DNA of 32,000 nucleotides from Promethearchaeum syntrophicum (GTDB taxonomy: Archaea; Asgardarchaeota; Lokiarchaeia; Sigyniarchaeales; Promethearchaeaceae): positions 1,500,001 through 1,532,000 of the forward strand of contig NZ_CP042905.2 in the NCBI RefSeq assembly GCF_008000775.2, given 5' to 3'. A program made the position numbers and the translations under genes. The notes under the pieces were generated by a model that did no database searches, was not told the DNA's origin, and saw only the letters and a list, made by a program, of their open reading frames with translations. Shown in pieces: positions 6,701-31,578 of the stretch (positions are counted from its first letter, which is position 1; each line of letters begins with the position of its first letter).

Positions 6701-6837
6701 TGATTGAACGCAACCAAAATAAGTGAATTTATTATCAAGCTTATCAAAATTATACCCAAGATTAGTGAACTCCTAGAAGATGATCTAATCTTTGGTCTCC
6801 AATTAAATTGTAATCTTATTTTCATGCATCCCATCAC
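3742..6837 (-). CDS. Large cell-surface protein: N-terminal signal/anchor, parallel beta-helix (PbH1/NosD-like) repeats, acidic calcium-binding-type repeats, C-terminal TM anchor
   Basis: The N-terminal hydrophobic segment is SLILGIILISLIINSLILVAF. There are many N-x-[ST] sequons and repeated NN.I..N...GI.L units typical of right-handed beta-helices. The Asp-rich region (DxDxDxxxD, thrombospondin-type-3-like) covers nt 3922-4824. The C-terminal TM is LFWTILGTIMTFGFGIIGIKI, followed by a Lys-rich tail. The track start at 6837 is GTG; ATGs lie at 6834 and 6825. Confidence 0.85.
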   Translation of the reverse strand: MMGCMKIRLQFNWRPKIRSSSRSSLILGIILISLIINSLILVAFNHELESNFTFSQNKPNASYTNTTLTIDPTQGFNTSNSGNWNWAVNQPWCSGSGTFEDPYVIEDLILSPGSDDGLIIMNSKNYYFRIENVSATGFVDAGIYFEETCNGTIVNCTSSSNDFGVYLAWNSKNNTIADSTFESNIFDGIFLTWYSNDNFILNTTIIDCGDGIDIYTYSNGNQVKHNQITGSDDNGINVRSNIQDTLLENNSIDLTADSATGIDCRTSITNLTIINNTVYTNGHFQSYGLSLSGITDLKVYNNTVDAKNVIGINIVNIDGGIFGGNALINGGGYEISGENEELESLTFYSENNTVNGRKFYYYVNQNDLDNSDFTNAGQIYLIGCDTAQIQNQNVSKATHGITLINSHNVVIEDCNASNGWEGISLQDGSSFNTIENCIINNNYEMFTSTYGINIEENGQNNIITKCEIKDNGYGVYIGSSEDNEIKNCEIRDNGYGIQLRFGSSSNEIINNTIEDHLYQGIYLRDGADWNSFENNTIKNNGGYGAYIHTSINSTFFNNTFDNNAGGIYFTASSNGGLFYDNRIQNHADRGIFIDESTVNYNLIYGNIFNSNNIHAHDLGSNSWNNTEKGNYWDNVTTPDVDGNGIIDDPVIITPKGIDYLPMKYPDSSLYQDSDSDGLLDYEEVYGTLNDGYGNEPTDRFDADSDDDNVNDYNEIQVHGTDPNDDDSDDDLMDDGYEVDNDLDPLVNDANDDADADTLTNIEEFNRGTDPNNIDTDDDLMGDGYEVNNGLDPLVNDANDDADADTLTNIEEFNRGTDPFDNDTDNDLMDDGYEITQGLDPLVDDANDDEDEDALTNLEEFNAGTDPFDNDTDNDLMDDAYEVSSGLDPLVDDTELDYDEDGMPNLWEYENGFNAGDAEDADEDKDLDLLTNLQEYEYNTDPNIADTDGDGYQDGWEIEHETNPLDPMDPGDEVPFYKNGLFWTILGTIMTFGFGIIGIKIRLNQKKKLESIVNKKINEKLENSSNSDLNSD
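4180..4611 (-). repeat. Three tandem 144-bp (48-aa) coding repeats inside the surface protein gene
   Basis: The units read DPLVNDANDDADADTLTNIEEFNRGTDP..DTD.DLM.DGYE....GL. Units at 4324-4467 and 4468-4611 share long identical DNA stretches (for example the run starting GGATCTGTTCC at 4385 and again at 4529). Confidence 0.85.
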
Positions 6838-7751: not shown

Positions 7752-8804
7752 TTAATCATTAGGATTATTTTCACAATAATCCACAATATATTCATTTTCA
7801 TTTCTTTTTCGGATGTTGTCTAAATAATTTAATTTTAATGCGGTTTCTTGTTTTGTAATAACAGAAAAGCCTAATTTTTCATTATTATACTTGGTTGGAC
7901 CTTTAATCTTAGTTCTTTTATTAATGAAATCAATGTGGTTTTTGATTCTTCTCTTTATGTAGTTATTCGCAATAGGTTTTAAATTTTCAATATTTGATTC
8001 TATAATATCTTTCATAGAAATATCTATTTCAATCCCAATACTATTCCGTTCGGAAGTCATTGCCGCAATACTAGTTGTACCAGTTCCTAGAAAAGGATCA
8101 AGAATTGTATCTCCCTTTGTTGAGAACATATTAGCTAATCTATATGCCAATTCAAATGGGAAGGCTGCACTTCTTTTTCTTGTGAGTTTATTATTTAGAT
8201 TTTGTGAAATTCCTTTAAAATCCCAGATATCAGAGAACCAGATATTTCTCTCTTCCCAAAAATATGAACTTTCCCTACGATTTATCTTCCGATTTTCTTC
8301 TTTGAAATCTCTTTTATTGCCTTTTCTAAATATTAAAATAAATTCATGTTCTAAAGTAACATACGCCCCTGGAGGAAGCATTCCAGATCCCATGAATTTA
8401 TTAGGGGCATTGGTCTGTTTTCTCCATATAATTTCTGGTAAAGATTGAAATCCTAATTCTAAAAAATGCTCAATAATTCTTGCATGAGATGGAAAAAGTT
8501 GGAATTTTTTATCTATTGTTCTTGTTGCATCACCTATATTAATGCAAACAATTCCTCCCGGAACAATAACTCTAAATAATTCACACCAGACTTTCTTTAA
8601 TTCTTCATGCATAAGCTGAAATGCTTTCTCACTTTCGGATTTTTCCAAGGCATCTTTAATTTTGGAATTTTGATTGCAGAAAATTTCATCCCACATTTCA
8701 ATCATTGGATACGGTGGAGAAGTAATTACCAATTCAATAGATTCATCTTTAATTTCTCCTAGATTATCCGCAGATTTGTAAATAAATTTATGCGATGTGT
8801 TCAT
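7752..8804 (-). CDS. Beta-class DNA methyltransferase (N4/N6 family, SPPY motif)
   Basis: Motif IV (VITSPPYP) is near the N-terminus and motif I (DPFLGTGTTSIAA) near the C-terminus, which is the beta-class permutation of PF01555-type enzymes. Confidence 0.85.
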   Translation of the reverse strand: MNTSHKFIYKSADNLGEIKDESIELVITSPPYPMIEMWDEIFCNQNSKIKDALEKSESEKAFQLMHEELKKVWCELFRVIVPGGIVCINIGDATRTIDKKFQLFPSHARIIEHFLELGFQSLPEIIWRKQTNAPNKFMGSGMLPPGAYVTLEHEFILIFRKGNKRDFKEENRKINRRESSYFWEERNIWFSDIWDFKGISQNLNNKLTRKRSAAFPFELAYRLANMFSTKGDTILDPFLGTGTTSIAAMTSERNSIGIEIDISMKDIIESNIENLKPIANNYIKRRIKNHIDFINKRTKIKGPTKYNNEKLGFSVITKQETALKLNYLDNIRKRNENEYIVDYCENNPND

Positions 8805-8825
8805 GCTTATCTGTCCTGAGATATT

Positions 8826-9872
8826 TTATGACTTAATAAATTTAAAAAGTGTGCTGTTTTTATCATTATCCAGATTTAGTTTTTTTCTTATTTTTTCAAC
8901 AATATTCGAACTAATATTCATTTTCTCAAGAGTATCTAGAAGAATTTCTAGATTGATTCTATCTTTTTTTGTTTTCAAATCTGATAATTCTGTGTTTGTG
9001 TTTTCTAATAATTGTAGTAATGTTTTAATTGATCTTTCATAATGAGGAATCAAAATAGGTGTTTTTGGTTCATATTGGCTCTTATTAATAATTGTTTCTT
9101 TGATGAGATTTTCACGAGGGAACATTTCATAACCATATCCTTGTAATCCTAAAGAATTAGCGGCAGCCAGTGTTGTTCCAGTTCCTAAAAATGGATCTAA
9201 AACGGATTTTGCATTAGGTACGGCTTTAATACAGGAATATGGTAATCCAATTGGAAATGGAGCATCATGACCTTTTTTAATTGTCGCTCCTGTAGTTTTT
9301 TCATAGCAAATATGAAGCAAATTTCCAGGATCCCGTAAATCTGAACTTCCATATCTTCCTATATTCGATTTATCTGCATATGGTATTCCAATTGCTTTGG
9401 GATTTAATTCATATTTTTTTTTATCTTTTACAAAGAGGAATATATGTTCCCATACATTATTAAAACGTTTGTTTCCTCCTGAAGGAGTATAATGTCCTTT
9501 TCCATATATAGATTTTACCCAAATAATATCTTGTATACGTATCCAACCTGCTTGTTCTGTAGAATTTGCTACTTTTTCTGATAAACCTTGAGTTGTTGCA
9601 GAATCGCCAATGTTTAAAAAAAACACTGCTTTTTCTGAAGAAACACGAAAGCATTCTTTCCAGACCCTATTCAACATTTGAAAATATTCTTTTTCTGGAA
9701 GTGAATCATTATATTTTACATTTGAATCAGAAGAATAATGTTTTCCACGATTATATGGGGGAGAAGTTATTATGATATCGATAGTGTCATCTTGAATTTC
9801 ATCCATTTTCTCTGATGATTTAAAATAAACTGTTTGATTGTCAATAACTAACATTTTCGAAGATCCATGCAT
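8826..9872 (-). CDS. Beta-class DNA methyltransferase (N4/N6 family, SPPY motif), paralogous to its neighbour
   Basis: Motif IV is IITSPPYN and motif I is DPFLGTGTTLAAA. The gene ends 21 nt before the start of the downstream methyltransferase gene on the same strand. Confidence 0.85.
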   Translation of the reverse strand: MHGSSKMLVIDNQTVYFKSSEKMDEIQDDTIDIIITSPPYNRGKHYSSDSNVKYNDSLPEKEYFQMLNRVWKECFRVSSEKAVFFLNIGDSATTQGLSEKVANSTEQAGWIRIQDIIWVKSIYGKGHYTPSGGNKRFNNVWEHIFLFVKDKKKYELNPKAIGIPYADKSNIGRYGSSDLRDPGNLLHICYEKTTGATIKKGHDAPFPIGLPYSCIKAVPNAKSVLDPFLGTGTTLAAANSLGLQGYGYEMFPRENLIKETIINKSQYEPKTPILIPHYERSIKTLLQLLENTNTELSDLKTKKDRINLEILLDTLEKMNISSNIVEKIRKKLNLDNDKNSTLFKFIKS

Positions 9873-11836: not shown

Positions 11837-13558
11837 TTATATTAATAGCTTTTCTATTCGAATTCTTATCCCATATTCTAAAAGCTGTAGAAGATAACTC
11901 TCGGCACTCAGTATTGAACTATATCTTTGCTCAAACTTTCGGCGAATGTAAGGTGAGCGCGGTTCCCAAGAAACCTTATTCCACACCTTTTTGCGTTCTT
12001 GTTCAAGCATCATTCGCATCCGAGCTACATGCCATCTGTTATAAAGTATCATTCCCAATTCTAAATTCCACTGACGTTGGGTAGACTTGCGACTCCTTGA
12101 TAATCGAACAAACTTAGCTTTACCCTCTTTAAACCCATTTTCAATAGACCATCTTTCATGATACACTTGAGCAAGTTTAATGAAATAATCTGTGTTATGT
12201 TTAATCGCTTCATCTATTGTCGATGATATGGTAAAAAACATAAGAGAATTAAGCATCAATGTTTGATTTTTCTTTAATTTCTTGAGATACTCCATAGACT
12301 TTATTATCTGCTTATATTTCTTATAAAGTTGTGAATTTCTGAACTTAGTCCTTTTTCTTTGAGTTATTTTTTTTATTATAGAAGGATTCTTGATTCCTGC
12401 TTGTTTTTGAAGATCAATGTATTCTTTCTGATATTCATCAATTCTATCTTCGGAGGACTTGATATTTTTCTTAGTAACCATCCATTCATGTTTAAGATCT
12501 TTGAGTTTTCGATTCCTGTTTGTCTGATATCCATCCACAACAGCCACTAATACAACAGGAATATGATACATTGAATCATATGTTTTCATTTCAGATGCTT
12601 CACAATATCCTTTTAATGAAGGATGCGTATATTTCGATAAATTAATATAATCCATAAATACTTCTTTTGAATTTGGGTCTTCTAAGAATGCAACCTTTTT
12701 TCTAACCTTTTCCCTGGCAAATTTTTTTGGTACAATAACTCTAATATTATCGTTATGCTTACATTTACTACTAATTTGATTGAAATATGCAGCTGTAAAT
12801 AATTCACCATTATAATACCCTCGATCAGCGTCAATAAACTTTACTTCAGATCCTGCACCTTCAACTATCTTGCAAGAGTTTTGTAACTGCCCAATAAAGG
12901 CTTGAATTGTAGTATTCTCGTATTTAGGTTTATGGTAATTCTGATGTAGTGTACTTATAAAGAGTTGATTGGTGCAATCATACACAGATGAATAAGTAAA
13001 GCCTCGTTTCCACGTATTATTTTGACCAATATGGACAAATGAATATTGATCATTCAAGTATTTAGAACGTGTTTCTTCAGGCGTCGTGTCGATAGCAAGG
13101 ATTACCTCCTTGGATTTACCGTTAAACTCATTTAATTCTTTCATACATGCGGTATAGTTTTCATTAAGTTTATCATCAAGATTGGGTTTACTATCTTGGA
13201 TGACATTGTCAGTAACTGCTTGACGACTTGCGGATAGAGGAAATTTCCTTGATTCTGGCATAAAAATCTCAATTGCATTATTTAATGCTGTGTCTGTATC
13301 TTGCGATGCCTTGATGGACGACAACACCGAATAAATAGATGTTGAAATTACGTTCAAGTGTTTCTTTCCAATTTCCAATGATGATTTAGTCAACATTGAG
13401 GAGATCAGAGTCAAAATAACCCGTTCTTTTGTATTTTGTGAGGAATTTACCTTCCTTTTCTGTTTACTCGTTAATCCGAGCAAATCAAGTTGTTCCGAAA
13501 AGACTAAATGGAGTTGTTCATTATCTAAAGATGAGATGCTACTTACCTCTTGGTACAT
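11837..13558 (-). CDS. IS4-like DDE transposase
   Basis: Candidate DDE residues lie in LAIDTTPE and FIDADRGYY. YHERWSIENGFKEGK fits the Y(2)R(3)E(6)K signature of IS4-type transposases. Confidence 0.8.
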   Translation of the reverse strand: MYQEVSSISSLDNEQLHLVFSEQLDLLGLTSKQKRKVNSSQNTKERVILTLISSMLTKSSLEIGKKHLNVISTSIYSVLSSIKASQDTDTALNNAIEIFMPESRKFPLSASRQAVTDNVIQDSKPNLDDKLNENYTACMKELNEFNGKSKEVILAIDTTPEETRSKYLNDQYSFVHIGQNNTWKRGFTYSSVYDCTNQLFISTLHQNYHKPKYENTTIQAFIGQLQNSCKIVEGAGSEVKFIDADRGYYNGELFTAAYFNQISSKCKHNDNIRVIVPKKFAREKVRKKVAFLEDPNSKEVFMDYINLSKYTHPSLKGYCEASEMKTYDSMYHIPVVLVAVVDGYQTNRNRKLKDLKHEWMVTKKNIKSSEDRIDEYQKEYIDLQKQAGIKNPSIIKKITQRKRTKFRNSQLYKKYKQIIKSMEYLKKLKKNQTLMLNSLMFFTISSTIDEAIKHNTDYFIKLAQVYHERWSIENGFKEGKAKFVRLSRSRKSTQRQWNLELGMILYNRWHVARMRMMLEQERKKVWNKVSWEPRSPYIRRKFEQRYSSILSAESYLLQLLEYGIRIRIEKLLI

Positions 13559-18343: not shown

Positions 18344-19768
18344 TTGATTAAGATTAGTTTAAAAGAAAGAAGAAAATTCGGTCAGCATTTCACTTCACCA
18401 GTGATATTTGAATTGTATATACTTCCTGAGATAAAACATAACCTTCATAATTATGTTTGGGTTGACTTATTTGCTGGATCAGGTAATTTAATTTTACCCA
18501 TTTTAAAAACAATTCCGAAAAAGCAACGAGTCGATTTTTTTAAAGATCATATCTATTTATTTGATGTTCAAGAGCAATGCATTGAAGAAACAATTAAACA
18601 TGCTGTAAGCTTAGGTATCCCACGAGATATCGCTAAAAAAAATATTATTCTTAACGATTCACTTAGATCATTTCCAAAAATTTTATCGAAATCACATCTA
18701 AAATTTCCAATTTTCCATATAACAAATCCTCCTTATCTATATTTAGGATACATCGTGAAAAGTAAAGAAACTCAGAAATATATCAGTCTTTTTCAAGGAG
18801 ATAATAAAGGATACCAAGATTTATACCAACTAGCGTTAATAAATGATCTTAGAAATAACGTAAAAGACATGATTTACATAATCCCCTCCAATTTTCTCTT
18901 TGGAAACTCTGTCTCAAATAAAATTCGCGATGATTTATTGAAATTTTATCGAATTAAAAATATGTATATCATTGAAAAAAAAATTTTCAAATATACAGGA
19001 ACTAATGTAATGATTACTTTCTTTGAAAGGAAGGATGAAGTGAAAAATGAGATATTAGAGTTTAAGGGTGTAAAAATTGGGGAAGATAAAGAAATTGAGA
19101 AAGTTAAAACTTACAAATTAAGCCCGAAATACCATTATAAAGCCGGATTCGAATTTGAAGATTTTATCGAAAAGATGAAAGCAAAAACACCATTAAAATC
19201 ATCATACTATCTTAAAATCTCTGAAATTAATTCTTGTTTGGGTAGTACTAATGTTAATTTAATCGATTCAAATGATTTCAACGGTTCTTCTTATAGAAAA
19301 ATTAATTTCCCTGTTAATCAAGAATTATTCGAAAAAATAAAAACTAATCCCCTTTGGATTAGAACTGTTGATACAGGATCATGGAATGGAAGAGCTGGGT
19401 TATATTCAATTAATGAAATTTTCAATGTAGATGGAATTCTTGTGACTAAAAATACTTACCGAACAAACCCCATTCAGATATTCTTCCATACACCTATTAC
19501 TGTTGATGAACAATTCCTACTAAAAGATTATTTTAACCTTATCCTGGAATATTTGAGAAAAATAACGGATAGTGAGTTTATGACTACCTATAAATATTCA
19601 GGAGCGAATTATACGAGAAAGTATTTCGGGCTTTCACAAGCAAAAAAACTTATCGAAACATTTCCAATTCGCGTTTTAAATGAAGCTCAACTGGAAAAAT
19701 TCAAAAAACTAATAAAATCAAAGGATTCCAAAAGTTTACTCTTTTTCTTAAAAAATAATAGAAATTAA
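18344..19768 (+). CDS. Gamma-class N6-adenine DNA methyltransferase-like protein with a ~230-aa uncharacterised C-terminal region
   Basis: FGQHFTSP lies near the N-terminus, motif I is VDLFAGSGNL and motif IV is FHITNPPYLY, in that order (gamma class). The start is TTG and there is no in-frame ATG nearby. Confidence 0.7.
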   Translation: MIKISLKERRKFGQHFTSPVIFELYILPEIKHNLHNYVWVDLFAGSGNLILPILKTIPKKQRVDFFKDHIYLFDVQEQCIEETIKHAVSLGIPRDIAKKNIILNDSLRSFPKILSKSHLKFPIFHITNPPYLYLGYIVKSKETQKYISLFQGDNKGYQDLYQLALINDLRNNVKDMIYIIPSNFLFGNSVSNKIRDDLLKFYRIKNMYIIEKKIFKYTGTNVMITFFERKDEVKNEILEFKGVKIGEDKEIEKVKTYKLSPKYHYKAGFEFEDFIEKMKAKTPLKSSYYLKISEINSCLGSTNVNLIDSNDFNGSSYRKINFPVNQELFEKIKTNPLWIRTVDTGSWNGRAGLYSINEIFNVDGILVTKNTYRTNPIQIFFHTPITVDEQFLLKDYFNLILEYLRKITDSEFMTTYKYSGANYTRKYFGLSQAKKLIETFPIRVLNEAQLEKFKKLIKSKDSKSLLFFLKNNRN

Positions 19769-21361: not shown

Positions 21362-21802
21362 TTAAGGCAAAGTTAATAGATTTAATCCTTTAATTCTCTT
21401 AAAATGATTTATATTACCTGTTAAAAGATCCCTATATGAAGATTTGAGGATGATGCTAGCAATTATGCAATCGAAATTTTCTATTTTTTTACCTTGAGAC
21501 ACTAATTGGTGATAGATTTCAGCACTTTTTATTGCTGTTTGGCTAGTCATATTATATACTTTTAAATTTTGGACTAAATTATTCAATGCTTGTCTTTCGT
21601 GTTTTAATTTTTCTTGCGCTACTTTTTGTTTTGAATATTCTAATTGATAAAACCCAAAATAAAGTTCATATACATTTGCTGATGTCGTTGCAATTTGATC
21701 ATATTGAGAAAAAATTGAAGATAAATCAACAGAATCAATATTTTCATGCAAAATGCCAATTAACACATCTGTATCTACAAATAAAACGTTTTGCAAAACC
21801 AT
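21362..21802 (-). CDS. vapC: PIN-domain ribonuclease toxin VapC
   Basis: The N-terminus is LFVDTDVLIGIL, with acidic residues in PIN spacing. It lies 12 nt downstream of a small antitoxin gene. Confidence 0.8.
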   Translation of the reverse strand: MVLQNVLFVDTDVLIGILHENIDSVDLSSIFSQYDQIATTSANVYELYFGFYQLEYSKQKVAQEKLKHERQALNNLVQNLKVYNMTSQTAIKSAEIYHQLVSQGKKIENFDCIIASIILKSSYRDLLTGNINHFKRIKGLNLLTLP

Positions 21803-21814
21803 TTTAAAAATCTC

Positions 21815-22069
21815 TTAGTTTTCTCCATTAATTCGAGTGTTGAAAGATTTCTGCATTTGTTTCCTGGATTCTGCATAGGTTTCTATTGCAAATTTTTCAT
21901 ATTCAGGATCGTCTGATTTAGCAGCGCCATAAAATGAAAGAATTTTCTCTACATTTGAAGTGTTATCCAATAGACGTTCTATAATGTCGGAAAAACTTTC
22001 ATTGGTTTTTTTAGCTTTTTTTAAACGATTATACACATCTTGTTTAATTGAAATTTGTTGCGAAGCCAT
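21815..22069 (-). CDS. vapB: VapB-type antitoxin (archaeal DUF217/PF02697-like)
   Basis: ISIKQDVYNRLKKAKKTNESFSDIIERLL matches the characteristic family N-terminus. Confidence 0.75.
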   Translation of the reverse strand: MASQQISIKQDVYNRLKKAKKTNESFSDIIERLLDNTSNVEKILSFYGAAKSDDPEYEKFAIETYAESRKQMQKSFNTRINGEN

Positions 22070-22353: not shown

Positions 22354-22498
22354 ATTTTTCTTCAAAATAATGACTTAATTTTGATTATATTCGATTTATT
22401 AATGATACATATTTTTATTACACACTTTTTACGCAACCTTTAAATACTAGAGTCACCTTATTATAATTAGAACTTAGAAATTAAATCGGTGGAAAAAA

Positions 22499-22588
22499 AT
22501 GAAAAAAAATCGAAACTTATACGCAAAGAAAAACGCTTTTGATATGATGGTTCAGAATCCCGGATTAATCAGCTCAATCCGAGTATAA
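22499..22588 (+). CDS. Lysine-rich small peptide, copy 1 (29 aa)
   Basis: MKKNRNLYAKKNAFDMMVQNPGLISSIRV; GGTGG plus an A-run precedes the ATG. Differences from the other copies are synonymous or conservative. Confidence 0.65.
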   Translation: MKKNRNLYAKKNAFDMMVQNPGLISSIRV

Positions 22589-22636
22589 AATTAATAAATA
22601 ATTTTTTAAAATAAAAAACTTAACAGTGAAAAAAAA

Positions 22637-22726
22637 ATGAAAAAAATATTAAAACTTTACATTAAAAAAAACGCCTTTGATCTGATGGTAGAGAATCCCG
22701 GATTAATCAGCTCAATCCGAGTATAA
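22637..22726 (+). CDS. Lysine-rich small peptide, copy 2 (29 aa)
   Basis: MKKILKLYIKKNAFDLMVENPGLISSIRV; AGTGA plus an A-run precedes the ATG. Confidence 0.65.
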   Translation: MKKILKLYIKKNAFDLMVENPGLISSIRV

Positions 22727-22773
22727 AAATAATCAATAATTTTTTTAAATAAAAATCTAAACAGTGAAAAAAA

Positions 22774-22863
22774 ATGAAAAAAACTCAAAAAAAATACATT
22801 AAAAAAAACGCCTTTGATCTGATGGTAGAGAATCCCGGATTAATCAGCTCAATCCGAGTATAA
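22774..22863 (+). CDS. Lysine-rich small peptide, copy 3 (29 aa)
   Basis: MKKTQKKYIKKNAFDLMVENPGLISSIRV; AGTGA plus an A-run precedes the ATG. Confidence 0.65.
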   Translation: MKKTQKKYIKKNAFDLMVENPGLISSIRV

Positions 22864-22911
22864 AAATAATCAATAATTTTTTTAACTAAAAATCTAAACA
22901 GGGGAAAAAAA

Positions 22912-23010
22912 ATGAAAAATATGAAAAAAACTCAAAAAAAATACATTAAAAAAAACGCCTTTGATCTGATGGTAGAGAATCCCGGATTAATCAGCTCAAT
23001 CCGAGTATAA
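22912..23010 (+). CDS. Lysine-rich small peptide, copy 4 (32 aa, or 29 aa from the ATG at 22921)
   Basis: MKNMKKTQKKYIKKNAFDLMVENPGLISSIRV; relative to copy 3 it has an in-frame 9-nt 5' extension, so the frame is preserved. Confidence 0.65.
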   Translation: MKNMKKTQKKYIKKNAFDLMVENPGLISSIRV

Positions 23011-23188
23011 TATCAATAAAAATTTTTTCAAATTATATTGGGATGCAAAATGGCAAAATGAACATGTTAGGCATGTAATAACTAACAAATAATAAAAATA
23101 ATAATAATAACGCTCATAAAAATAATAAAATAAAAAAAACAACAATTATGATTATAAAAATAATAAATTGCAAACAAAAAATTGGTAG

Positions 23189-24364
23189 ATGATAATAATG
23201 ATAGAAAAAGATGACGATTATGATTTTGATGATGATTTAGACGAAGAAGACGAAGAAGACGAAGAAGAAGAAGAAGAAGACGAAGAAGACGAAGAAGAAG
23301 AGGATGATGATTATATGGATGACGAAGATGAAATTTCGGAAAGCCCAATGAAAATCTCGGGATCTATGAAACTTCCTGGGGGTAAAATAAATCGGGACTT
23401 AAGAGTCTCTGGGTCAGTTACGATAGATAGTGATTTTGAATGCGAACACTTGCGCGCATCAGGTTCTGTTTCTGCTTTAGGAAACATTACTGCCCATAAT
23501 GGAGTGAGATCCAGTGGATCATTTAATTGTAGAGGCAGTCTGTTCGCCGATGATGGAGTTGTAAAATTAACTTCTTCTTCGAATATCGAAGGAGATGTTA
23601 TACTTGAATGCATGATTAAAGCCTCAGGTTCGTTGCGCATTGGGGGAAGTTTACATGCTGAAGATTTAGCAAGGTTTAGCTCGAGTGTTTCCATCGGTTC
23701 AGATGCTGTGATAGATGGAGATATCAAAGTATCCGGAGGCTTCTCCTGTGGCGGATTATTAACTGCCGAAAAAAGCGCGCATTTTAGTGGAAGTGCTGAA
23801 ATTGGAAAGGATTGCGTTATTAATGAGAATCTTCATTCTTCAGGATCTTTTAATTGTAATGGTATGCTTCACGTAGATGAAAATACTCATTTCAGCAGTT
23901 CAGCATCGATTAAAAATGATGTTTTAATAAGTGGGTTTCTACATAGTTCGGGTTCCTTCAGCTGTGGGAGCAGTTGTGAAGCAGAAGCTGGTGTTAAATT
24001 TACAGGATCAAGTAAAATTAAAGGAAATTTGAGTTCTGAGAATACTATTGATATAATGGGTAGAGCAATAATAGGCAATAACGTAACCGCATCCAACCTT
24101 TATATTGGAGTGCATTCCAAAGGAATGAAAACACATTTGGAAAGTAGAGCATCGCGGATAGAGGGTAATGTCTCTGTTCAAAATCAAGTTCAATTGGAAG
24201 ATGCTTATGTAAATGGGGATCTTCGAGCTAGAACTGTGGATTTACTTAAAAATTCGGGTGTTGTAGGAACAATTTATTATGCTGATGAATTTAAAGCTCA
24301 TAAAGATGCAAAATATGGAGATGTTGTAAGAATTGATTCTGAAGATTTAGAGGAGAAAGAATAA
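23189..24364 (+). CDS. Bactofilin-like (polymer-forming cytoskeletal, DUF583-type) beta-helix protein with a poly-acidic N-terminal tail
   Basis: Residues ~8-48 are almost entirely D/E. After that, 13 [ST][GS][SG] triplets are spaced 17-18 residues apart (once 20), for example ISGSM, VSGSV, ASGSV, SSGSF. This matches the ~18-residue winding of bactofilin-type helices and the KISGSG-type openings of polymer-forming cytoskeletal proteins. Confidence 0.7.
   Translation: MIIMIEKDDDYDFDDDLDEEDEEDEEEEEEDEEDEEEEDDDYMDDEDEISESPMKISGSMKLPGGKINRDLRVSGSVTIDSDFECEHLRASGSVSALGNITAHNGVRSSGSFNCRGSLFADDGVVKLTSSSNIEGDVILECMIKASGSLRIGGSLHAEDLARFSSSVSIGSDAVIDGDIKVSGGFSCGGLLTAEKSAHFSGSAEIGKDCVINENLHSSGSFNCNGMLHVDENTHFSSSASIKNDVLISGFLHSSGSFSCGSSCEAEAGVKFTGSSKIKGNLSSENTIDIMGRAIIGNNVTASNLYIGVHSKGMKTHLESRASRIEGNVSVQNQVQLEDAYVNGDLRARTVDLLKNSGVVGTIYYADEFKAHKDAKYGDVVRIDSEDLEEKE
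23210..23332 (+). repeat. GAA/GAC/GAT-rich coding low-complexity tract (poly-D/E tail)
   Basis: There are runs such as GAAGAAGACGAAGAAGACGAAGAAGAAGAAGAAGAAGACGAAGAAGAC. The tract also generates the artefactual antisense ORF 23082..23348 (LLRLLR...). Confidence 0.85.
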
Positions 24365-24394
24365 ATAATAATTAGAAAAAAAAGGTGAAAAAAA

Positions 24395-25396
24395 ATGGCA
24401 CATTATGAAGAAGAAGAAGAAATTAAAAGATTGGGTGAAACAATTGATAGAATCAATGAACTAAATGAAAAAACATCTGATTTAATCGAAGATGCCAAAT
24501 CATACGCTCCTGATGCTGCTGATGTTGCAGATGATAAACTAGAAAATGCTAGAGAAAAATTAGATACTGCAAAAGAAAAACTGGGCAATACATGGGAGAT
24601 TTTACATGATTTTAAGGAAAGGGCTAGATTGGCTGCAGAAATCTATGATGAAGCACAAATGAGTGGAAATCCACAAATGGATGCCAAAGTTGAAAAAGCA
24701 AGATATACTGCTGAACGAACAAAAGCGAAACTTGAAGCATCAATTATGAAAACCTTAAGCAGTTTGGATAAAGCCAAAAATGCATCAGAAAAGGCTAATT
24801 CACGAGCGAATATTGCAGCTATTAAATCAAATGCAGCCGAATCCCGAGAAAAGGGAAAGAAAGTTCGTATAAATTTTACATTACCTGATGATATGAAACA
24901 ATCTTGGAAAGGTTTAGCAGATGACCTTAACATCTCAATTTCTCAAATGATAAGAACGGCAATGGATTCTTTTGAGAAAAATATAGACAATTTAGGGGAA
25001 TTAGGGGAATTAGGAGACTTTCATATTGAAAAAAAGAAGAAAAAGAAAGGAAAATTTAATGATCTAGAGCAAAGAATTGAGCGATGGGGAGATAAATTAG
25101 AAAAAAAATTTGAGCAAAAATATGAAAAATCTGGACAAGAAGGTGTTAAATTTTCAGAAGAAAACAAAGAAAAATTAAAGAAAAGATTAACCGGGTTCAT
25201 TAAAATTAATCAAAATATTCCTGTGGATAAATTTGCTCAAATATTAAATTGCTCAATTGCTCAAGCAGAGAATTTGATTTATGAATTAGCCGCAGAGGGA
25301 ATCGAAGGTTTTATGGAAAAAGGGGTATTCCGATATGAGAGCTCTACCGAAGAAGTTATTTCAGAACTTTTTAAAATCTTAGATCGGGAAGAGTAA
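24395..25396 (+). CDS. Coiled-coil protein with a central ribbon-helix-helix-like segment and a C-terminal winged-helix-like domain
   Basis: GGTGA-A8-ATG lies 30 nt after the preceding stop. The N-terminal ~150 aa are helical and rich in heptad-like A/K/E. KVRINFTLPDDMKQSWKGLADDLNISISQMIRTAMDSF looks like the strand-helix-helix of the CopG/RHH fold. IPVDKFAQILNCSIAQAENLIYELAAEGIEGFMEKGVFRY looks like a winged helix. Confidence 0.6.
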   Translation: MAHYEEEEEIKRLGETIDRINELNEKTSDLIEDAKSYAPDAADVADDKLENAREKLDTAKEKLGNTWEILHDFKERARLAAEIYDEAQMSGNPQMDAKVEKARYTAERTKAKLEASIMKTLSSLDKAKNASEKANSRANIAAIKSNAAESREKGKKVRINFTLPDDMKQSWKGLADDLNISISQMIRTAMDSFEKNIDNLGELGELGDFHIEKKKKKKGKFNDLEQRIERWGDKLEKKFEQKYEKSGQEGVKFSEENKEKLKKRLTGFIKINQNIPVDKFAQILNCSIAQAENLIYELAAEGIEGFMEKGVFRYESSTEEVISELFKILDREE

Positions 25397-25537
25397 TATA
25401 ACTAAATTTCCGAGTTTTTTTTTTTATTTCTTAAGGCATTTTCTGAAATTATAGTGTTATATATTTCATACATCTCTAATTTGAACAGATCTCATTATAA
25501 ATTAGCAAAAATTAAAAAAAATGGTTAAAAATAGAAT

Positions 25538-28282
25538 TTAATCTGAAAAACCAAGATATTCTAAAATCTGATTTAATTTTTCTTTATTTTTAGAATCTTC
25601 AGGATCAGATTTTAATTTCTTTTTTAGAAATACAATTTCACCTGCTTTTTGCTCTATAGCGTAAAGTAATGTCTTCCAATTGTTAAAATCGTTCATTAAT
25701 GAAGCAATAATTTCATCATTAGCGAAATTTTTAAATATTTTTTCATCTTTATCTTCTTTCTTATCTCTTCTTGTTTTGGTCTTCACTGATTTTCGTGCAG
25801 ATTTGTTAATCCGGTTGTTCGCATTGTTAATTATCCTTTTTAACACAGATTGGTCCTGCAAGATTTTTCGAATTGTTTCTTCAAGAATTTCTTCATAAGA
25901 GTCAATATCATTGGGTAATATATCGTTTTGGAGCAAAATATCACGTAACATAATGTATGTCCTTTCTAGATCCTCCAAAAATGGTGAAATCTCTTTTTTA
26001 AAATGTTCGCGTTCATTGTCCAGGTCTGCGTCTCCTAAAATTGAATCTGATTGAAAAACATGACTTTCTTGGTCATACACTCCAGTTAATCTCTTTTGTT
26101 CCATTAAATCTAGTAAAATTTTTTCAAGATACATAATACCTTCTTCACTTAATGTAATTTCTTCAATAACTGATGAATTGAGATCAATATAGCTTTTGGC
26201 TTCTATCATTCGTTCTTGAATTCCTCTTTCAGTTAGGAATTTTTCATTTTCCTTAATCCATAATCCGCTTATTTCTCCATTTTTGAGTAAATTTTCCAAA
26301 ATATTAATAAGAATGTGAGAGGAACACTTATATTTAGATACAAGTTCATTAATTTTCATTACATTGAGATTAAGAACATTTTCTTTAATTGATTGAGATA
26401 ATTTATTTTGTTCCTCATCGATTCTTTTCTTTGAAAAAATAATTTTATCATGGATAATTAAATACCCATCAGGTTTCTCTAAAGAATCGACAAATTTTAG
26501 AAATTCTTTCTGATCCATCTGTAAATCTCGTAACAGTGGATTAATTAAAAACTCATCTTTCTCAGAAAGCATTTTACCGATTTTATTGAGTTTTTCATCA
26601 ACTTTTTGAGAAATTTCATCCTTATCAACCTGAAGTTCGTCTGCTAAAGAATCTATTAATTTTTCTCTTTTAACAGCATCTAATTCATTTTGAATTGAGG
26701 AAATTCGCTTTTTGACATATTTAGAGAAATAGAAATTCTTTTCTTCTTTATTCCAGAAGCCATTTTTATGTTCAAATATTTTTTTGGTGATTTTATGTAA
26801 AATCGAAGGATGAATACCTAACTTTTCGGCTCTTTGTTCGACATTACAATCCCCAATTTGTTCGCAAATCCTTAATTCTTGTTGGATATTGGTAGTTCCT
26901 AAGTGGGTTAACCAAGAATGTTTATAGTGATATTTTGTAAAAATTTTTGTTCTACAGTATTCTTCCAATTTATAGAAATTTTCTTGAGTAAATCCTGATT
27001 TGTAAGGGCTAAGATCAATGATATTTGATCGATAACTTTCTTTTTCTATTTCTTGCGTGATTGCAGAAAAAGTATGGTATTTTGACTTCTCTAAATTATA
27101 TATTCCAAGAATTCCTTGAGTTTCAATTTCATTGATTAATTTATGGATGGTATCTTTATCGATTGATTTTGAATAATTTAAAATATCAATAGAGCCATAT
27201 TGTTGTAAACGTTGAAGAAATTCCTTTTTAAGGTAAGACCAATCATAATAATATTTTTTAGTAAAATACCCTCTAATAATGTGCTTCTCGAGCATACTTT
27301 TTATTAAAATCATTACGACTGCATTATTTTTTATGCCTAAATCATTGAATATTCTCACAATCTCATCCAATTTTATTTTTCGCTGAGAAAGGAATGATAT
27401 AATTTTCCCTTTTTCTAATTCAAGCAATTTTTTATGATTTTTATCAATGAATACTAGTGTATAAATCGTATCTTCATCAATCTGGCTGAGAAGATAATTT
27501 TCCACCTCTTCCAGAGATAAATTTTCCTGTTCCGAAATAATATTTAGATCTGTGAAGCGAATCAAAGTTGGGCGATTATCTATTTCTCTCAATATTTGAT
27601 TTTTTGACCAATTGGAATTCTCTCGTTTTTTAAGTAAAGGGATTTCTTTTTCAATTAAATTCAATATGATATCACTTATTTCAGCAGATTTATTATTCTC
27701 ATAGATGTCTCTCAATTGTTGGATATATTTTATGAGTATGATCAGGGACATTTTCGGCTGCAATCTTGAAAGTATATTTTGAGTTGTTTTTAGAACCTCT
27801 GAATTTGATTCGTCTTCTAAAATTTTGATAAAAATATTCAATTTCAATAAAAGCTGAGTATCAAATGAATCAGGAAATTGTTCTAAAAAGAAGCAAATAT
27901 TTTGCCGAGTTTCCGATTTTGAATCATATAACAGCTCAAGAAAACCATTTAAATGTGTCATATCTGAGTAATCTTCTTGAGATAAGAAATTCAGTAAACA
28001 AGAGCCATAAATAATTACCGCATTGATCTTTTCTTTTGTTTTATCCCCTTTAATGTAAGGGTCTATATCTGCAAATATTGAATGTGAAAAAGATTCGGGC
28101 ATTTCTTCTGCAATTAGTGAGAGAATGTAGAGAGCAGTATTTGATTCTTTTTTCAGCCATTTAATAACAGCATTTGAATGTGTCTCAAATTTGTTCCATT
28201 TCTCTCTTTCGTAATCTTCATTAATATTATTTATCAATTTAATTAATTTTTTATCCGTTAAATTTGGTATTTCAATAAACAT
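25538..28282 (-). CDS. Large (914 aa) uncharacterised protein: HEAT/ARM-like N-terminus followed by repeated winged-helix-like modules and coiled-coil segments
   Basis: It is a long uninterrupted ORF. At least five segments follow the pattern (label)-helix-x-G-x-I-x-G, for example SMLEKHIIRGYF, INEIETQGILGIYN, LENLLKNGEISGLWI, LLDLMEQKRLTGVYD. I recognise no catalytic motif. Confidence 0.6.
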   Translation of the reverse strand: MFIEIPNLTDKKLIKLINNINEDYEREKWNKFETHSNAVIKWLKKESNTALYILSLIAEEMPESFSHSIFADIDPYIKGDKTKEKINAVIIYGSCLLNFLSQEDYSDMTHLNGFLELLYDSKSETRQNICFFLEQFPDSFDTQLLLKLNIFIKILEDESNSEVLKTTQNILSRLQPKMSLIILIKYIQQLRDIYENNKSAEISDIILNLIEKEIPLLKKRENSNWSKNQILREIDNRPTLIRFTDLNIISEQENLSLEEVENYLLSQIDEDTIYTLVFIDKNHKKLLELEKGKIISFLSQRKIKLDEIVRIFNDLGIKNNAVVMILIKSMLEKHIIRGYFTKKYYYDWSYLKKEFLQRLQQYGSIDILNYSKSIDKDTIHKLINEIETQGILGIYNLEKSKYHTFSAITQEIEKESYRSNIIDLSPYKSGFTQENFYKLEEYCRTKIFTKYHYKHSWLTHLGTTNIQQELRICEQIGDCNVEQRAEKLGIHPSILHKITKKIFEHKNGFWNKEEKNFYFSKYVKKRISSIQNELDAVKREKLIDSLADELQVDKDEISQKVDEKLNKIGKMLSEKDEFLINPLLRDLQMDQKEFLKFVDSLEKPDGYLIIHDKIIFSKKRIDEEQNKLSQSIKENVLNLNVMKINELVSKYKCSSHILINILENLLKNGEISGLWIKENEKFLTERGIQERMIEAKSYIDLNSSVIEEITLSEEGIMYLEKILLDLMEQKRLTGVYDQESHVFQSDSILGDADLDNEREHFKKEISPFLEDLERTYIMLRDILLQNDILPNDIDSYEEILEETIRKILQDQSVLKRIINNANNRINKSARKSVKTKTRRDKKEDKDEKIFKNFANDEIIASLMNDFNNWKTLLYAIEQKAGEIVFLKKKLKSDPEDSKNKEKLNQILEYLGFSD

Positions 28283-28381
28283 GAGTTAGAATCAACCTTT
28301 CGTTATCTTTTATTAAATAAATATTGGATGTGCTCAAAATTTTATTGGTGCATATCATAAAAAATTAAGGTAAAAAAAAAA

Positions 28382-28849
28382 TTGGGAAGAACTAAAAAAG
28401 GTTTCAAAATAAATCGGATTATGGAACAAGAAAAAATAGAACATCGCGTTAAAATTACCTTAATTATTAATGGGATTGTTGATATCGCAATGGCTTTTTG
28501 TTTAATTATTATTCCTCGACTTTTTGCACAAATCCTTCAATTTGAGGATTTTAATGACAGTTTTCGCTTCTTAGCTGGAGGATATGGAATTGCTACATTA
28601 AGTTTTGGTATAACTCGTATTTGGGTAGCAAAAAAGAATTCATTTCTTTGGGAAACCGTCTTAGTAGGATTTATTGAAGGATTCCTTTTGGGAACTTTCT
28701 GTATGGCTATGGTGTTATATACAGAGATAACTATTATTAATGCTTTTTTACCAATATTAATCGGGTTTGGATTTATGATTATTCACTTATTATTTCTTAT
28801 TTCTCGAAAGAAATTAATCTTCAATAAGAAATTTCTACAGAAAACCTGA
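28382..28849 (+). CDS. Small integral membrane protein (4 predicted TM segments)
   Basis: Hydrophobic helices include ITLIINGIVDIAMAFCLIIIP, GYGIATLSFGITRIWV, VLVGFIEGFLLGTFCMAMVLY and LPILIGFGFMIIHLLFLI. The TTG start at 28382 follows an AGGT-A10 layout; an alternative ATG lies at 28421. Confidence 0.55.
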   Translation: MGRTKKGFKINRIMEQEKIEHRVKITLIINGIVDIAMAFCLIIIPRLFAQILQFEDFNDSFRFLAGGYGIATLSFGITRIWVAKKNSFLWETVLVGFIEGFLLGTFCMAMVLYTEITIINAFLPILIGFGFMIIHLLFLISRKKLIFNKKFLQKT

Positions 28850-28987
28850 AAGTTCTATTTAATTCTCTTTTTTTTTAAGATTAAAAAAGACACAATGTTT
28901 ATCAAAATATGGCTTATTATCTGGAAGATTTATTTCTTTTGGTATATTTCACATCCCATTTAGCAATTTCCTAAATTTCTAGAGAAA

Positions 28988-29740
28988 CTATTCAAATTTA
29001 TCATCTGGAAAAAGTTTGGGTAATATTTGAGGAATAGAGTTTATATCTGGAATAATATAGTCTGGATTGTGAAATTCTAATTCTCCTCGTGCACTATGAC
29101 CACTTAAAACTGCAATAGATTTAATTTTAGCGCGTTGGGCTGCTTGAACATCTGTGATAAGATCTCCGATAAATGCAACTCTGTTTCTATCAATTTTTGG
29201 AAAATGGTAATATTTCTTTATTTTAACTAATAATGCTAATAAAGGCACGGGACTTGGTTTAACACCATAAGTCTTTCTAACATCTCGAGAAATAAATAAC
29301 GGGAATAAATCATCAACATTTTTTAATTTAAACCACTTTGCAATTCGATCCCGATGTGAATTCGAAGCGGCTCCCAAAATAATTCCTTTTGAACGCAAAT
29401 ATCTGAGAGTTTCCTCCGTTCCTGGAAAGAAATCACTAAATTGCCAATCATATTTATCAATTTTTCTCCCCATCATCGCAATATAAACTAATCTTCTGAA
29501 TCTATTTGGGATTAATTCCTTAAAGTTTTTTAACATAGTAGCTAATGATGGAATCGATCGTTTCTTTGCTCCTGATTCAAACATTCTAATAATATCTACT
29601 GAAGTGGTTCGAGCGAGAATTTCATAATTCCAATTTGTAAACCGATCATGCATTGAATCAAGTGCTGCAAGAAAGTGACCTCGAGAGTCAAGTAAAACAC
29701 CATCGACATCAAATAACAAAATTGGAGGGTGGGGATGCAT
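28988..29740 (-). CDS. HAD-superfamily hydrolase (phosphoglycolate-phosphatase-like subfamily IA)
   Basis: Motif I is LLFDVDGVLLDS, motif II is GAASNS and motif III/IV is K...FIGDLITDVQAA. Confidence 0.8.
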   Translation of the reverse strand: MHPHPPILLFDVDGVLLDSRGHFLAALDSMHDRFTNWNYEILARTTSVDIIRMFESGAKKRSIPSLATMLKNFKELIPNRFRRLVYIAMMGRKIDKYDWQFSDFFPGTEETLRYLRSKGIILGAASNSHRDRIAKWFKLKNVDDLFPLFISRDVRKTYGVKPSPVPLLALLVKIKKYYHFPKIDRNRVAFIGDLITDVQAAQRAKIKSIAVLSGHSARGELEFHNPDYIIPDINSIPQILPKLFPDDKFE

Positions 29741-29800
29741 TTTTCTATCTATTTAATATTTGAATTTTAATGTTTATAATATTAATTTTATTGAGGGTTT

Positions 29801-30997
29801 TTATTCGGATTTTTTAATCAAAGGTATGAATTCTTCTTCATACTTTTTAACAATTTCATCCGCGCGATCTTCGAGTTCATTCTCCCAATATGGATTTTTC
29901 AACTGTTTCTCCTCGATATGCCAATTTTGATCTCGAAATTCAGTTGGAGGTTCCTCTTGCGAAAAACCCCATTTTTCATTAAAAGAATCAAGCCATTGTT
30001 CTGGTAAAGGGTCTCCAATCTTTACTCCCAATAATTCTGCTAAAAATAAAGACCATGACCTGGCAACAACTCCAACATTATAACCTCCGCCACCTAATCC
30101 GAGAAATTTATTATTACAATATTTTGGAACATTTTGGTTAATAATTTTAAATATTTTTTCATGCCCTGATGTAGAAAGACCCATGTTTGTGATTGGATCA
30201 GAGAAGTGGGTATCAACTCCTAATTGACAAACTAAATAATCAGGTCGATAAGCATCCATAATTTCAGGAACGAGTTTCTCAAAAATATTTATATAAACGG
30301 AATCAATCGTTCCTGGCAATAAAGGTACATTTAAGGCATATCCTTTGCCTTCTTCTTTACCATTTTCATCCAATAATCCTGATCCTGGAAACAAAGTATG
30401 CCCGTCTTGATGAAACGAAAGCGTTAACACATCTGACCTATCATAAAAAATCCATTGCACCCCATCTCCATGATGACAATCTATATCTAAGTACATAATT
30501 TTTGTGCCATTTGGCGATTTATCCAGAATATGTTGAATTGCTACCGCTGCATCATTTAGCAAACAAAACCCTGAAGCCATTTCGGGCATTGCATGGTGTA
30601 ACCCTCCCGTAATATTGAAACTTCTTGAAGAGTTTTCTTCCAAAATATAATCTGCTGCGGTTAATGAGGCACCGCATACTGCCATAGCCGCGTCATACAT
30701 TCCAGGGAAGATTGGGTTGTCTCCTGGTCCAAGTCCAAATTTAGGAAAAGCTTGGTATGGTGAACCCCCTACATTGTTGAGTTCTTTCAATTTATCTAAA
30801 TATCCGGCTTTATGAATACGTAACACTTCTTCTTCCGTTGCACTTCTTGGCGTAATTAATTTTAGATTCGGATTTTCAAAAAGATTATATGCTTTCATTA
30901 AATCATATGTAAGTTCAATGCGTTTTGGAGTCAAAGGGTGCCCAGAACCGAAATTGTATTGATTAAATTGCTCCGTAAAAATAAAACCAACTTCCAT
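29801..30997 (-). CDS. Histone deacetylase-family protein (AcuC/HDAC class I-like)
   Basis: It has GGLHHAMPEMASGFCLLND, YLDIDCHHGDGVQ and GGGGYN motifs. Confidence 0.85.
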   Translation of the reverse strand: MEVGFIFTEQFNQYNFGSGHPLTPKRIELTYDLMKAYNLFENPNLKLITPRSATEEEVLRIHKAGYLDKLKELNNVGGSPYQAFPKFGLGPGDNPIFPGMYDAAMAVCGASLTAADYILEENSSRSFNITGGLHHAMPEMASGFCLLNDAAVAIQHILDKSPNGTKIMYLDIDCHHGDGVQWIFYDRSDVLTLSFHQDGHTLFPGSGLLDENGKEEGKGYALNVPLLPGTIDSVYINIFEKLVPEIMDAYRPDYLVCQLGVDTHFSDPITNMGLSTSGHEKIFKIINQNVPKYCNNKFLGLGGGGYNVGVVARSWSLFLAELLGVKIGDPLPEQWLDSFNEKWGFSQEEPPTEFRDQNWHIEEKQLKNPYWENELEDRADEIVKKYEEEFIPLIKKSE

Positions 30998-31047
30998 ACC
31001 TAAAAAAATGTTTCCATCACTTTATTTTTTTCGAAAAGCAATAAAAT

Positions 31048-31578
31048 TTATAAAATAATTTTTTTGAAATCTTTTTTGAATTCGATTCCATGCTCATAAT
31101 AAAGTTCTGCTGTTTTTCTTGCTTCTTCAACTGCTTTTTCATCCAATTTTTTAATTAATTTTGCAGGATGCCCTAATATTAGACTCCTTTCTGGAAAATT
31201 TTTCCGTTCCGTCACTAAAGAACCTGCCCCAACCAGAGAACCTCGACCAATGGTAGTTTTTCCCATTATAATTGAACCAATACCAATTGTCACGAAATCC
31301 TTTAAAGTACATCCATGTATTACACAATTATGCCCGATAGTATTATATTCCCCTATATTTGTGCCGGAATCATGCAATCCATGTATTACTGTGCCACTTT
31401 GTATATTTGTGAATTTTCCAATTTTTATTTTGGTTCCAAGCCCTTCAAGCACAACACCGGAAAAAATCGTGCAACCTTCCCCAATTTCAACATCCCCAAA
31501 TATTATAACGTCATCGGCAATAAATCCCACATTAGGATTAATCTTAGGTTTACTATCTCTCAAAGCATAAACATTCAT
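31048..31578 (-). CDS. Gamma-class carbonic anhydrase-like / hexapeptide-repeat (LbH) protein
   Basis: Left-handed beta-helix hexapeptide repeats include IGEGCTIFSGVVL, IGHNCVIHGCTL and IGRGSLVGAGSLV. His residues are spaced as in the Cam/YrdA/PaaY family. Confidence 0.8.
   Translation of the reverse strand: MNVYALRDSKPKINPNVGFIADDVIIFGDVEIGEGCTIFSGVVLEGLGTKIKIGKFTNIQSGTVIHGLHDSGTNIGEYNTIGHNCVIHGCTLKDFVTIGIGSIIMGKTTIGRGSLVGAGSLVTERKNFPERSLILGHPAKLIKKLDEKAVEEARKTAELYYEHGIEFKKDFKKIIL

Follow-up and report, generated by a model that had tools for sequence, protein, structure and literature searches.

A long BacE/BacF-type bactofilin with a polyacidic tail and a linked partner gene in the Asgard archaeon Promethearchaeum syntrophicum

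Canonical bactofilins, such as Caulobacter BacA, Thermus TtBac and Helicobacter CcmA, combine a core of about six windings with a membrane-targeting tail at the N-terminus. The many-winding class of BacEF-like bactofilins has 13 windings and includes archaeal members (PMC11459167). BacE and BacF of Bacillus subtilis form multimers, and filaments upon overexpression (PMC4627819). The gene for BacR, a DNA-binding helix-turn-helix protein of the DUF4004 type, is located upstream of bacE/bacF in the yhbDEF operon; binding of BacE/F to BacR reduces or abolishes its DNA binding, and BacR is held at the membrane (PMC13649987). In Haloferax volcanii, the halofilin HalA consists of two six-winding domains joined head to head via a helical hairpin, while HalB carries a signal peptide and a five-helix transmembrane (TM) domain (PMC11459167). 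A stretch of 32,000 nucleotides from the Asgard archaeon Promethearchaeum syntrophicum (contig NZ_CP042905.2, positions 1,500,001 to 1,532,000; hereafter the window) contains an open reading frame (ORF) for a bactofilin-family protein and, directly downstream, the gene of a second protein, here called the partner. No other known prokaryotes are as closely related to eukaryotes as the Asgard archaea, whose cell architecture has been studied mainly with regard to actin, ESCRT and tubulin-like proteins. Searches of the available literature turned up no study on bactofilins from Asgard archaea.

The locus is best explained, with a probability of about 0.6, by a BacE/F-type scaffold that is paired with the product of the adjacent gene and has recently gained an acidic tail. 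The bactofilin kind of protein and the long BacEF-like class are already known, while the six extra windings, the polyacidic tail and the Asgard-wide linkage to the partner gene were not found described.

Bactofilin (PF04519, DUF583) is the sole Pfam family that the window protein matches above the curated cut-off (50.2 bits against a gathering cut-off of 27.9, E = 3.2e-13, best stretch residues 274–360), and it is found at E <= 0.01 in 16/16 aligned relatives. The AlphaFold2 (AF2) model, based on a 16-sequence alignment, has a pLDDT (predicted local distance difference test) score of 88.1 and a predicted template modelling (pTM) score of 0.82. Residues 1–48 are disordered in this model, with pLDDT below 50 in the tail, and DSSP assigns three-residue strands every six residues from residue 54 to about 306 (pLDDT 92–99). 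The helix begins at M-K-I-S-G-S, which is residue 1 in most Asgard homologues. About three further windings, with strands in residues 322–381, follow a 15-residue loop, the break in an otherwise continuous beta-helix, and the sole alpha-helix spans residues 384–387. The predicted structure is that of a rod of about 17–18 windings, roughly three times the canonical six-winding core. A preliminary description, made from the sequence without database searches, had recognised a bactofilin-like beta-helix, which the Pfam match and the long, regular AF2 helix with its disordered acidic tail bear out; its figure of 13 turns, about twice the canonical core, is superseded by the model. The 13 [ST][GS][SG] anchors on its list do exist (residues 57, 74, 91, 108/109, 128/129, 146, 164, 182, 200, 217/218, 236, 253/254 and 272), but they are spaced by 17–20 rather than 17–18 residues. 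Counting overlapping matches, this pattern occurs 17 times in residues 53–391, against 4.6 +/- 2.2 and a maximum of 13 in 2000 shuffles. Neither a non-polymerising family nor an irregular helix, the two outcomes named beforehand as speaking against a bactofilin, emerged from the profile searches or from AF2.

It is very improbable that the protein is a non-polymerising beta-helix, either of the left-handed, hexapeptide-repeat acyltransferase-like kind or an adhesin/ice-binding-like surface protein. This would account for sub-threshold matches to Hexapep (PF00132; 22.5 bits where 27 are required, and no single stretch sufficient by itself) and FapA, for the matches of some relatives to LbH_EIF2B, pAdhesive_15 and DUF2807, for the label 'predicted acyltransferase (DUF342 family)' that the Joint Genome Institute (JGI) gives to some homologues, and for a profile search of the PDB that ranks a phage tail fibre and ice-binding proteins above bactofilins. 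Beta-solenoids, however, all share weak repeat similarity, and Bactofilin alone passes its cut-off and recurs in all 16 relatives. The window protein also matches BacE/F-type bactofilins over their full length (see below), contains no signal peptide, TM segment or hydrophobic stretch in its sequence or AF2 model and no catalytic or accessory domain, and has a polyacidic N-terminus. PADLOC finds no defence-system match for it, and NCBIfam yields solenoid matches only, far below threshold.

Among characterised proteins, the long BacE/BacF-type bactofilins (YhbE/YhbF) of Bacillota are most closely related to the window protein, and not the halofilins that the preliminary description had mentioned. 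Alignment of the Asgard family by hhalign with 22 BacE/F-type Bacillota proteins, a set to which B. subtilis YhbE/F themselves do not belong, gives a probability of 100% (E = 8.6e-44, template residues 5–246 of 248). By BLASTP, the window protein matches P0243 of Bacillus salacetis with E = 6e-10, and P0243 is located in a DUF4004–bactofilin–bactofilin (yhbDEF-type) locus, the type from which the Bacillota proteins of this set come. BacE/BacF and the window protein share homology over their whole length, many windings, the start motif K/D-I-S-G, a cysteine in the second winding, the C-terminal windings, and a gene that adjoins one for a protein with DNA-binding domains. Peculiar to the window protein are its six extra windings and its polyacidic tail. 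Halofilins also belong to the archaeal part of the bactofilin superfamily and carry extra windings or fused domains. In contrast to HalA, however, the window protein is modelled as one continuous helix without an alpha-helical hairpin, and unlike HalB it contains neither a TM segment nor helices of TM length. Because the profile match is full-length and both the hairpin and the TM domain are absent, sequence comparison assigns the protein to the long BacE/BacF type and not to the halofilins. Canonical bactofilins resemble it in their PF04519 domain, triangular windings of about 18 residues and disordered termini; the window protein differs from them by its number of windings and by a tail that cannot bind anionic membranes.

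A word-indexed search returned 32 homologues, all with at most 44% identity; the top ones are Asgard proteins (Promethearchaeia, Heimdallarchaeaceae) and the weaker ones Bacillota proteins of the yhbE/yhbF type with about 240–260 amino acids (aa). True orthologues were recovered via the partner gene. An exhaustive phmmer search, run against 1.84 billion representatives, yielded 437 relatives with E <= 1e-3; only three of these are full-length long forms. The usual Asgard bactofilin has about 227 aa, no tail and one invariant cysteine. Short forms of 223–239 aa, annotated as 'polymer-forming cytoskeletal protein' or hypothetical, belong to the same orthologous family and share the partner gene, the invariant cysteine and the C-terminal region with the window protein, but they start with MKISGSG and have neither tail nor 108-residue insertion nor additional cysteines. 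The approximately 13 windings of the BacEF class are fitted by these short forms and exceeded by the window protein. In the alignment of 37 distinct Asgard homologues from the fetched loci (which carry L numbers), the insertion is absent from 29, most of which are such short forms with a single cysteine. Within the insertion, 36-residue units starting at residues 146, 182 and 218 share 15–17 of their 36 residues (42–47% identity), which is consistent with an ancient duplication of a two-winding unit. The long form probably arose from the 227-aa Asgard form by insertion of three such ancient units. Long forms without a tail are found in a Promethearchaeia metagenome-assembled genome (MAG) (P0002; L001, L014), in L008 and in Harpocratesius repetitus (L015).

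Other bactofilin-like arrangements occur in Asgard genomes. The Asgard MAG GCA_013166775.1 (L004 5001-6652, L005) contains two tandem bactofilin-like paralogues beside SRP54, with no partner gene near; one has 296 aa, including an N-terminal helical extension that looks SHOCT-like by eye, and the other 250 aa, and the tandem pair resembles the bacE/bacF arrangement. A 95-aa ORF that is convergent with the long-form bactofilin gene in L001 (9059-9346, minus strand), and is also present in L002 and L003, is similar to SepF, a cell-division protein (PF04472, 24 bits, slightly under the cut-off of 27).

The window bactofilin contains eight cysteines (residues 85, 114, 141, 187, 209, 223, 259 and 263), and recurrent cysteines had been pointed out in the preliminary description. 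Only Cys85 is conserved: it is present in 37/37 Asgard homologues, and the aligned column is invariant in the 22 BacE/F-type Bacillota proteins. The remaining seven are located either within the insertion or where relatives have leucine, isoleucine, valine or alanine. Because these non-conserved cysteines occupy, together with phenylalanine, the i/i+2 positions of three-residue strands and are replaced by such aliphatic residues in relatives, we infer that they pack the protein core rather than serve as functional thiols. The F-[NS]-C element reported for many turns is real (two FNC, two FSC and one FEC) but is confined to four or five of the 13 turns. A metal-binding or disulfide role of the recurrent cysteines was considered and rejected on the in-register F-x-C strand positions, which hold L/I/V/A/T/S in relatives.

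The adjacent partner gene, missed by the preliminary description, is the most widely conserved feature of the locus. Its approximately 100 homologues are all from Asgard archaea. In an adjacency scan with one genome per species, which covered 47 loci, a bactofilin homologue lies adjacent to and co-oriented with the partner gene in 31/47. The adjacency is also found in L001, L006, L008, L009, L010 and L062, and two loci of the scan lie at contig edges. One clade has the two genes in swapped order, and the reversed genes of P0002 and P0001 remain neighbours; together with the adjacency in 31/47 loci, this argues for selection on linkage.

The partner is predicted to comprise a three-helix bundle (residues 1–154), a ribbon-helix-helix (RHH)-like segment (155–200) and a PCI-type winged helix (255–333). 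Its AF2 model has a pLDDT of 76.9, with values above 90 in the bundle (5–154) and of about 85 in the winged helix (255–331); two helices of lower confidence are predicted in the RHH-like segment (165–200), followed by a disordered linker. Among 29 members of the partner family, Pfam detects PCI in 21, RHH_5, RHH_1 and RHH_3 in 8, 4 and 3, respectively, and Apolipoprotein in 18. The motifs R-I-N..P...W...S.S...R and AENLIYEL are invariant across the family. Foldseek of the partner model against the PDB gives non-significant matches to helical bundles, and PADLOC a weak 16.5-bit match only. BAR-like and UFL1/DDRGK1-like resemblances all had E > 0.01 and were not used.

The bactofilin would thus be a cytoplasmic scaffold of the long BacE/BacF type, a rigid triangular beta-helix rod of about 17–18 windings. 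Most family members start right at the first winding and are uncapped, and by analogy with characterised bactofilins the uncapped end windings are expected to join end to end, giving filaments or small assemblies whose formation would need no nucleotide. The protein most likely acts as a pair with the partner, which it would bind. The partner, with its amphipathic three-helix bundle, RHH segment and winged helix, would serve as an adaptor or regulator that is bound and localised by the scaffold, as BacR is by BacE/BacF, and its folds predict DNA binding. A scaffold with an adaptor or regulator is favoured because a BacE/F-type bactofilin again adjoins a protein with DNA-binding folds. The tail would be a recent, fast-evolving disordered appendage that cannot target membranes. 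A more plausible role is to adjust self-assembly through charge repulsion, or to bind basic ligands such as cations, a poly-lysine patch of the partner or peptides encoded upstream.

Several observations weigh against this interpretation. In the monomer model of the partner, pLDDT is low across the RHH region, and the window partner itself scores 17.2 bits for RHH_1, where the cut-off is 20.5. At 15 loci of the adjacency scan, including that of Lokiarchaeum ossiferum, there is room for a neighbouring bactofilin gene but none is adjacent. Foldseek of the bactofilin model against the PDB gives non-significant solenoid matches only, and direct comparison by sequence with canonical bactofilins of solved structure gives weak matches (E = 0.065–0.073). 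The co-occurrence of tail, upstream peptides and poly-lysine patch is confined to a single clade and represents one evolutionary event. The analogy of the partner with BacR is one of gene linkage only.

In contrast to the BacE/BacF operon, the neighbour in the window combines RHH, winged helix and helical bundle and is not a DUF4004/BacR protein; homology to BacR/DUF4004 was rejected at an hhalign probability of 0.5%, with no PF13171 match at E <= 1. As the Asgard host has neither flagella nor peptidoglycan, the Bacillus functions are not directly transferable. A bolder version of the scaffold-and-regulator reading can be put forward only tentatively: an Asgard-wide two-gene module whose filament captures or releases the DNA-binding partner, as a non-homologous reinvention of the BacR–BacEF switch, to which Promethearchaeum adds a charge layer of tail, poly-lysine patch and peptides. 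If true, a BacR–BacEF-like switch arose independently in the archaeal lineage closest to eukaryotes. A BacE/F-type bactofilin is in any case widespread in Asgard genomes and tightly linked to a partner with DNA-binding folds, and in Promethearchaeum, a cultured genus, it is lengthened by half and bears a polyacidic tail. Since every component is a small, soluble protein, direct expression and testing are feasible, and the series of short, long and long-plus-tail forms represents a natural experiment on the influence of winding number and tail charge on bactofilin assembly.

Alternatively, the gene pair could constitute a DNA-organising or DNA-segregating module, in which an RHH dimer of the partner binds specific DNA like ParG, ParR or CopG-type proteins and the rod serves as anchor, rather than a transcriptional feedback switch. 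This appears decidedly unlikely. The 15 RHH member-hits in the partner family (best E = 2e-5), its invariant R-I-N..P...W...S.S...R motif and the linkage of partner and scaffold across Asgard classes agree with such a module, but RHH proteins are mostly simple repressors, the flanks of the gene pair showed neither a ParA-like ATPase nor repeated centromere-like sites, and the locus is chromosomal, with neighbours that vary among genomes. The arrangement would be comparable to Myxococcus BacNOP–PadC–ParABS, and the participation of bactofilins in Myxococcus chromosome segregation (PMC13649987) counts in favour of this alternative.

The surroundings of other partner-family genes show further regularities. 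A Ras-family small GTPase is encoded about 1.3 kb upstream of a bactofilin-less partner paralogue in L022 (3612-4289), and ORFs of the same size occupy the equivalent position in L027, L030 and L055. Another conserved upstream ORF is common to L035, L045 and L050, which also contain bactofilin-less partner paralogues. Many partner-family loci have two genes for 420–440-aa proteins downstream, which are of the major facilitator superfamily (MFS) type in L006.

The features of the locus are compiled in Table 1.

Table 1. Positions of the features discussed (window numbering unless a locus is named).
Feature	Position	Strand	Description and basis
Bactofilin-family ORF	23189..24364	+	391 aa; ORF list, Pfam PF04519, upstream GGTGG motif
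Polyacidic disordered N-terminal tail	23189..23347	+	residues 1-53, net charge -37; composition, pLDDT below 50
Regular beta-helix (predicted)	23348..24106	+	residues 54-306; ~14 windings x 18 residues, S-G-S corners; AF2/DSSP, anchors
Cys85 codon	23441..23443	+	second winding, E-C motif; sole conserved Cys
Lineage-specific insertion	23549..23875	+	residues ~121-229, ~108 residues, six windings; gap fraction 0.78 in 37-sequence alignment
Basic surface loop GVHSKGMKTHLESRA	24107..24151	+	residues 307-321; interrupts helix; pLDDT ~53, irregular; winding net +3
C-terminal windings with longer strands, then short acidic end	24152..24361	+	windings at residues 322-381; pLDDT 96-98; best Pfam match
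Partner gene	24395..25396	+	333 aa; starts 30 bp past bactofilin stop; AF2, Pfam, adjacency
Poly-Lys patch EKKKKKKGK of partner	25028..25054	+	residues 212-220, disordered linker; alignment A2
Four tandem 29-codon basic-peptide genes (MKK..KKNAFDLMVENPGLISSIRV)	22499..23010	+	138-bp repeat; net charge +4 to +5; ORFs, Tandem Repeats Finder (TRF) period 138, 3.9 copies
Basic peptide proposed for synthesis			MKKTQKKYIKKNAFDLMVENPGLISSIRV
Peptide genes elsewhere	L010 4236-4581; L012 996-1225; L062 ~670-900; L059 527-616		
Archaeal TATA-box-like motif TTTAAATA	22439..22446	+	upstream of first peptide gene; putative promoter
Mobile/defence-type region and NosD-like protein	1955-3490, 11837-13558, 7752-9872, 18344-19768, 21362-22069, 3742-6837		

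The tail is almost purely acidic, as had been noticed at the outset: residues 8–48 comprise 18 aspartates and 18 glutamates among 41 residues. The isoelectric point of the window bactofilin is 4.35, compared with a near-neutral value of about 7.9 for the short Asgard forms. The core carries a net charge of -10 against -37 for the tail. A GGTG-like (GGTGG) ribosome-binding motif is located 9–10 nucleotides (nt) 5' of the second ATG (23198, residue 4) and is kept in four orthologues; translation therefore probably starts at this ATG and includes the tail. No membrane-targeting sequence was found in the tail, which contains no amphipathic or hydrophobic segment among its acidic residues.

The tail is encoded by GAA/GAC/GAT triplet repeats, which TRF places at 23239-23301. 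Its occurrence is limited to Promethearchaeum and close relatives, with five lineages: those of the window, L009, L010/L011, L012 (Promethearchaeum sp.) and L062. The segment ahead of MKISGS has 36, 59, 50 and about 90 residues in L009, L010/L011, L012 and L062, respectively, against 53 in the window, and is always in frame. The Logan contig L009 (run DRR199588) aligns with window 22941-31388 at 97.5% nt identity overall. Conservation is highest in the helix core and partner, with at least 99% identity and about one mismatch per 150 bp, and lowest in the tail/peptide region (92%), with indels and a 51-bp length difference. Given the variable lengths and this difference in identity, the tail is conserved in composition but free in sequence, and evolves fast. 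It is absent from clades that lack the peptide genes and the partner poly-lysine patch, and the patch in turn is restricted to partners of the clade whose bactofilin bears the acidic tail. The patch offers an alternative electrostatic counterpart to the upstream peptides.

The peptides share the consensus MKKN.K.YIKKNA[FY]D[LM][MI]..N[PS]G[LF]I[SC]SIR[VA], and each has a net charge of +3 to +5. Each peptide gene is preceded by a motif resembling a Shine-Dalgarno (SD) sequence and followed by a T-run. Two to four copies are located upstream of the acidic-tailed orthologues in L010, L012 and L062, and L009 begins inside one; none were found beside the other bactofilin homologues examined. A metagenome scan for peptide-gene DNA recovered two short contigs only. 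Divergent shorter and longer copies also occur in L010, L012 and L062. In a comparison of eight full-length copies, each of 29 codons, the proportion of synonymous differences (pS) exceeds that of non-synonymous differences (pN) in each differing pair; the copies of L012 and L010, for instance, differ by five synonymous changes and one non-synonymous change. By this measure, the peptide ORFs are genuine coding genes under purifying selection. A reading of the 138-bp repeats as RNA elements was rejected, since pS exceeds pN and both frame and length are conserved, and Rfam and tRNA scans of the window gave nothing. The peptides match no Pfam or PADLOC family.

The complementary charges of tail and peptides raise the question of an electrostatic three-component system, which would extend the scaffold reading rather than exclude it: the tail would block filaments or bundles until it is neutralised by the peptides, the poly-lysine patch or both, and the peptides would be dedicated assembly co-factors. 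Peptide genes, tail and patch indeed all occur in the window, L009, L010, L012 and L062 and are absent from the other loci examined, and the peptides are under selection. These positives, however, all come from the one clade noted above, the peptide charge is moderate, and the conserved C-terminal half (NPGLISSIRV) is uncharged. Each peptide gene also has its own T-run and apparently its own TATA-like motif, so that co-transcription with the bactofilin gene is not implied. In the metagenome contig L059, moreover, the peptide gene precedes a gene for a DUF4386 membrane protein and not a bactofilin. Such a system is considered unlikely. Because the co-occurrence is confined to one clade and a copy is found elsewhere in L059, the comparison of loci neither supports nor excludes an electrostatic link between tail and peptides, which the preliminary description had suggested and which the joint occurrence of tail, peptides and patch would fit.

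The L059 DUF4386 gene shares its first seven residues (MKKNLKL) with the peptide, as if a promoter-start module had been copied. Some 50 nt upstream of the first of the peptide genes (window 22420-22447) lies a conserved element of the form ACACACTTTTTAC(G/A)CAAC(C/A)TTTAAATAC, with counterparts in L010 and L062, which resembles an archaeal promoter with B recognition element (BRE) and TATA box. A similar TTTAAATA context is found in L063, in a long intergenic region ahead of the partner gene.

The window is low in GC and rich in genes of mobile or defence type. Two transposases (one of the IS110 family, the other a weak DDE type), an adjacent pair of N4/N6 DNA methyltransferases together with one more N6 methylase, and a VapB–PIN (VapBC) pair are encoded. 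Another product, of 1031 aa, is a NosD/right-handed beta-helix protein that contains a TSP3 repeat; a similar protein of 1030 aa is encoded close to the L006 bactofilin pair. A 914-aa protein without Pfam or PADLOC match is encoded on the minus strand (25538-28282), in convergent orientation to the partner gene. It is 47% identical to a 918-aa protein of Lokiarchaeum ossiferum in the same relative position (L013 8879-11635, minus strand). Genes for 916- and 918-aa proteins, likened to it by size only, are found at the equivalent position in L062 (4988-7358, minus strand) and L063 (4762-7193, minus strand). A conserved gene for a 503-aa protein (truncated to 263 aa in L063), missing from the window, lies between the partner gene and the gene of the 914-aa type in L013, L062 and L063.

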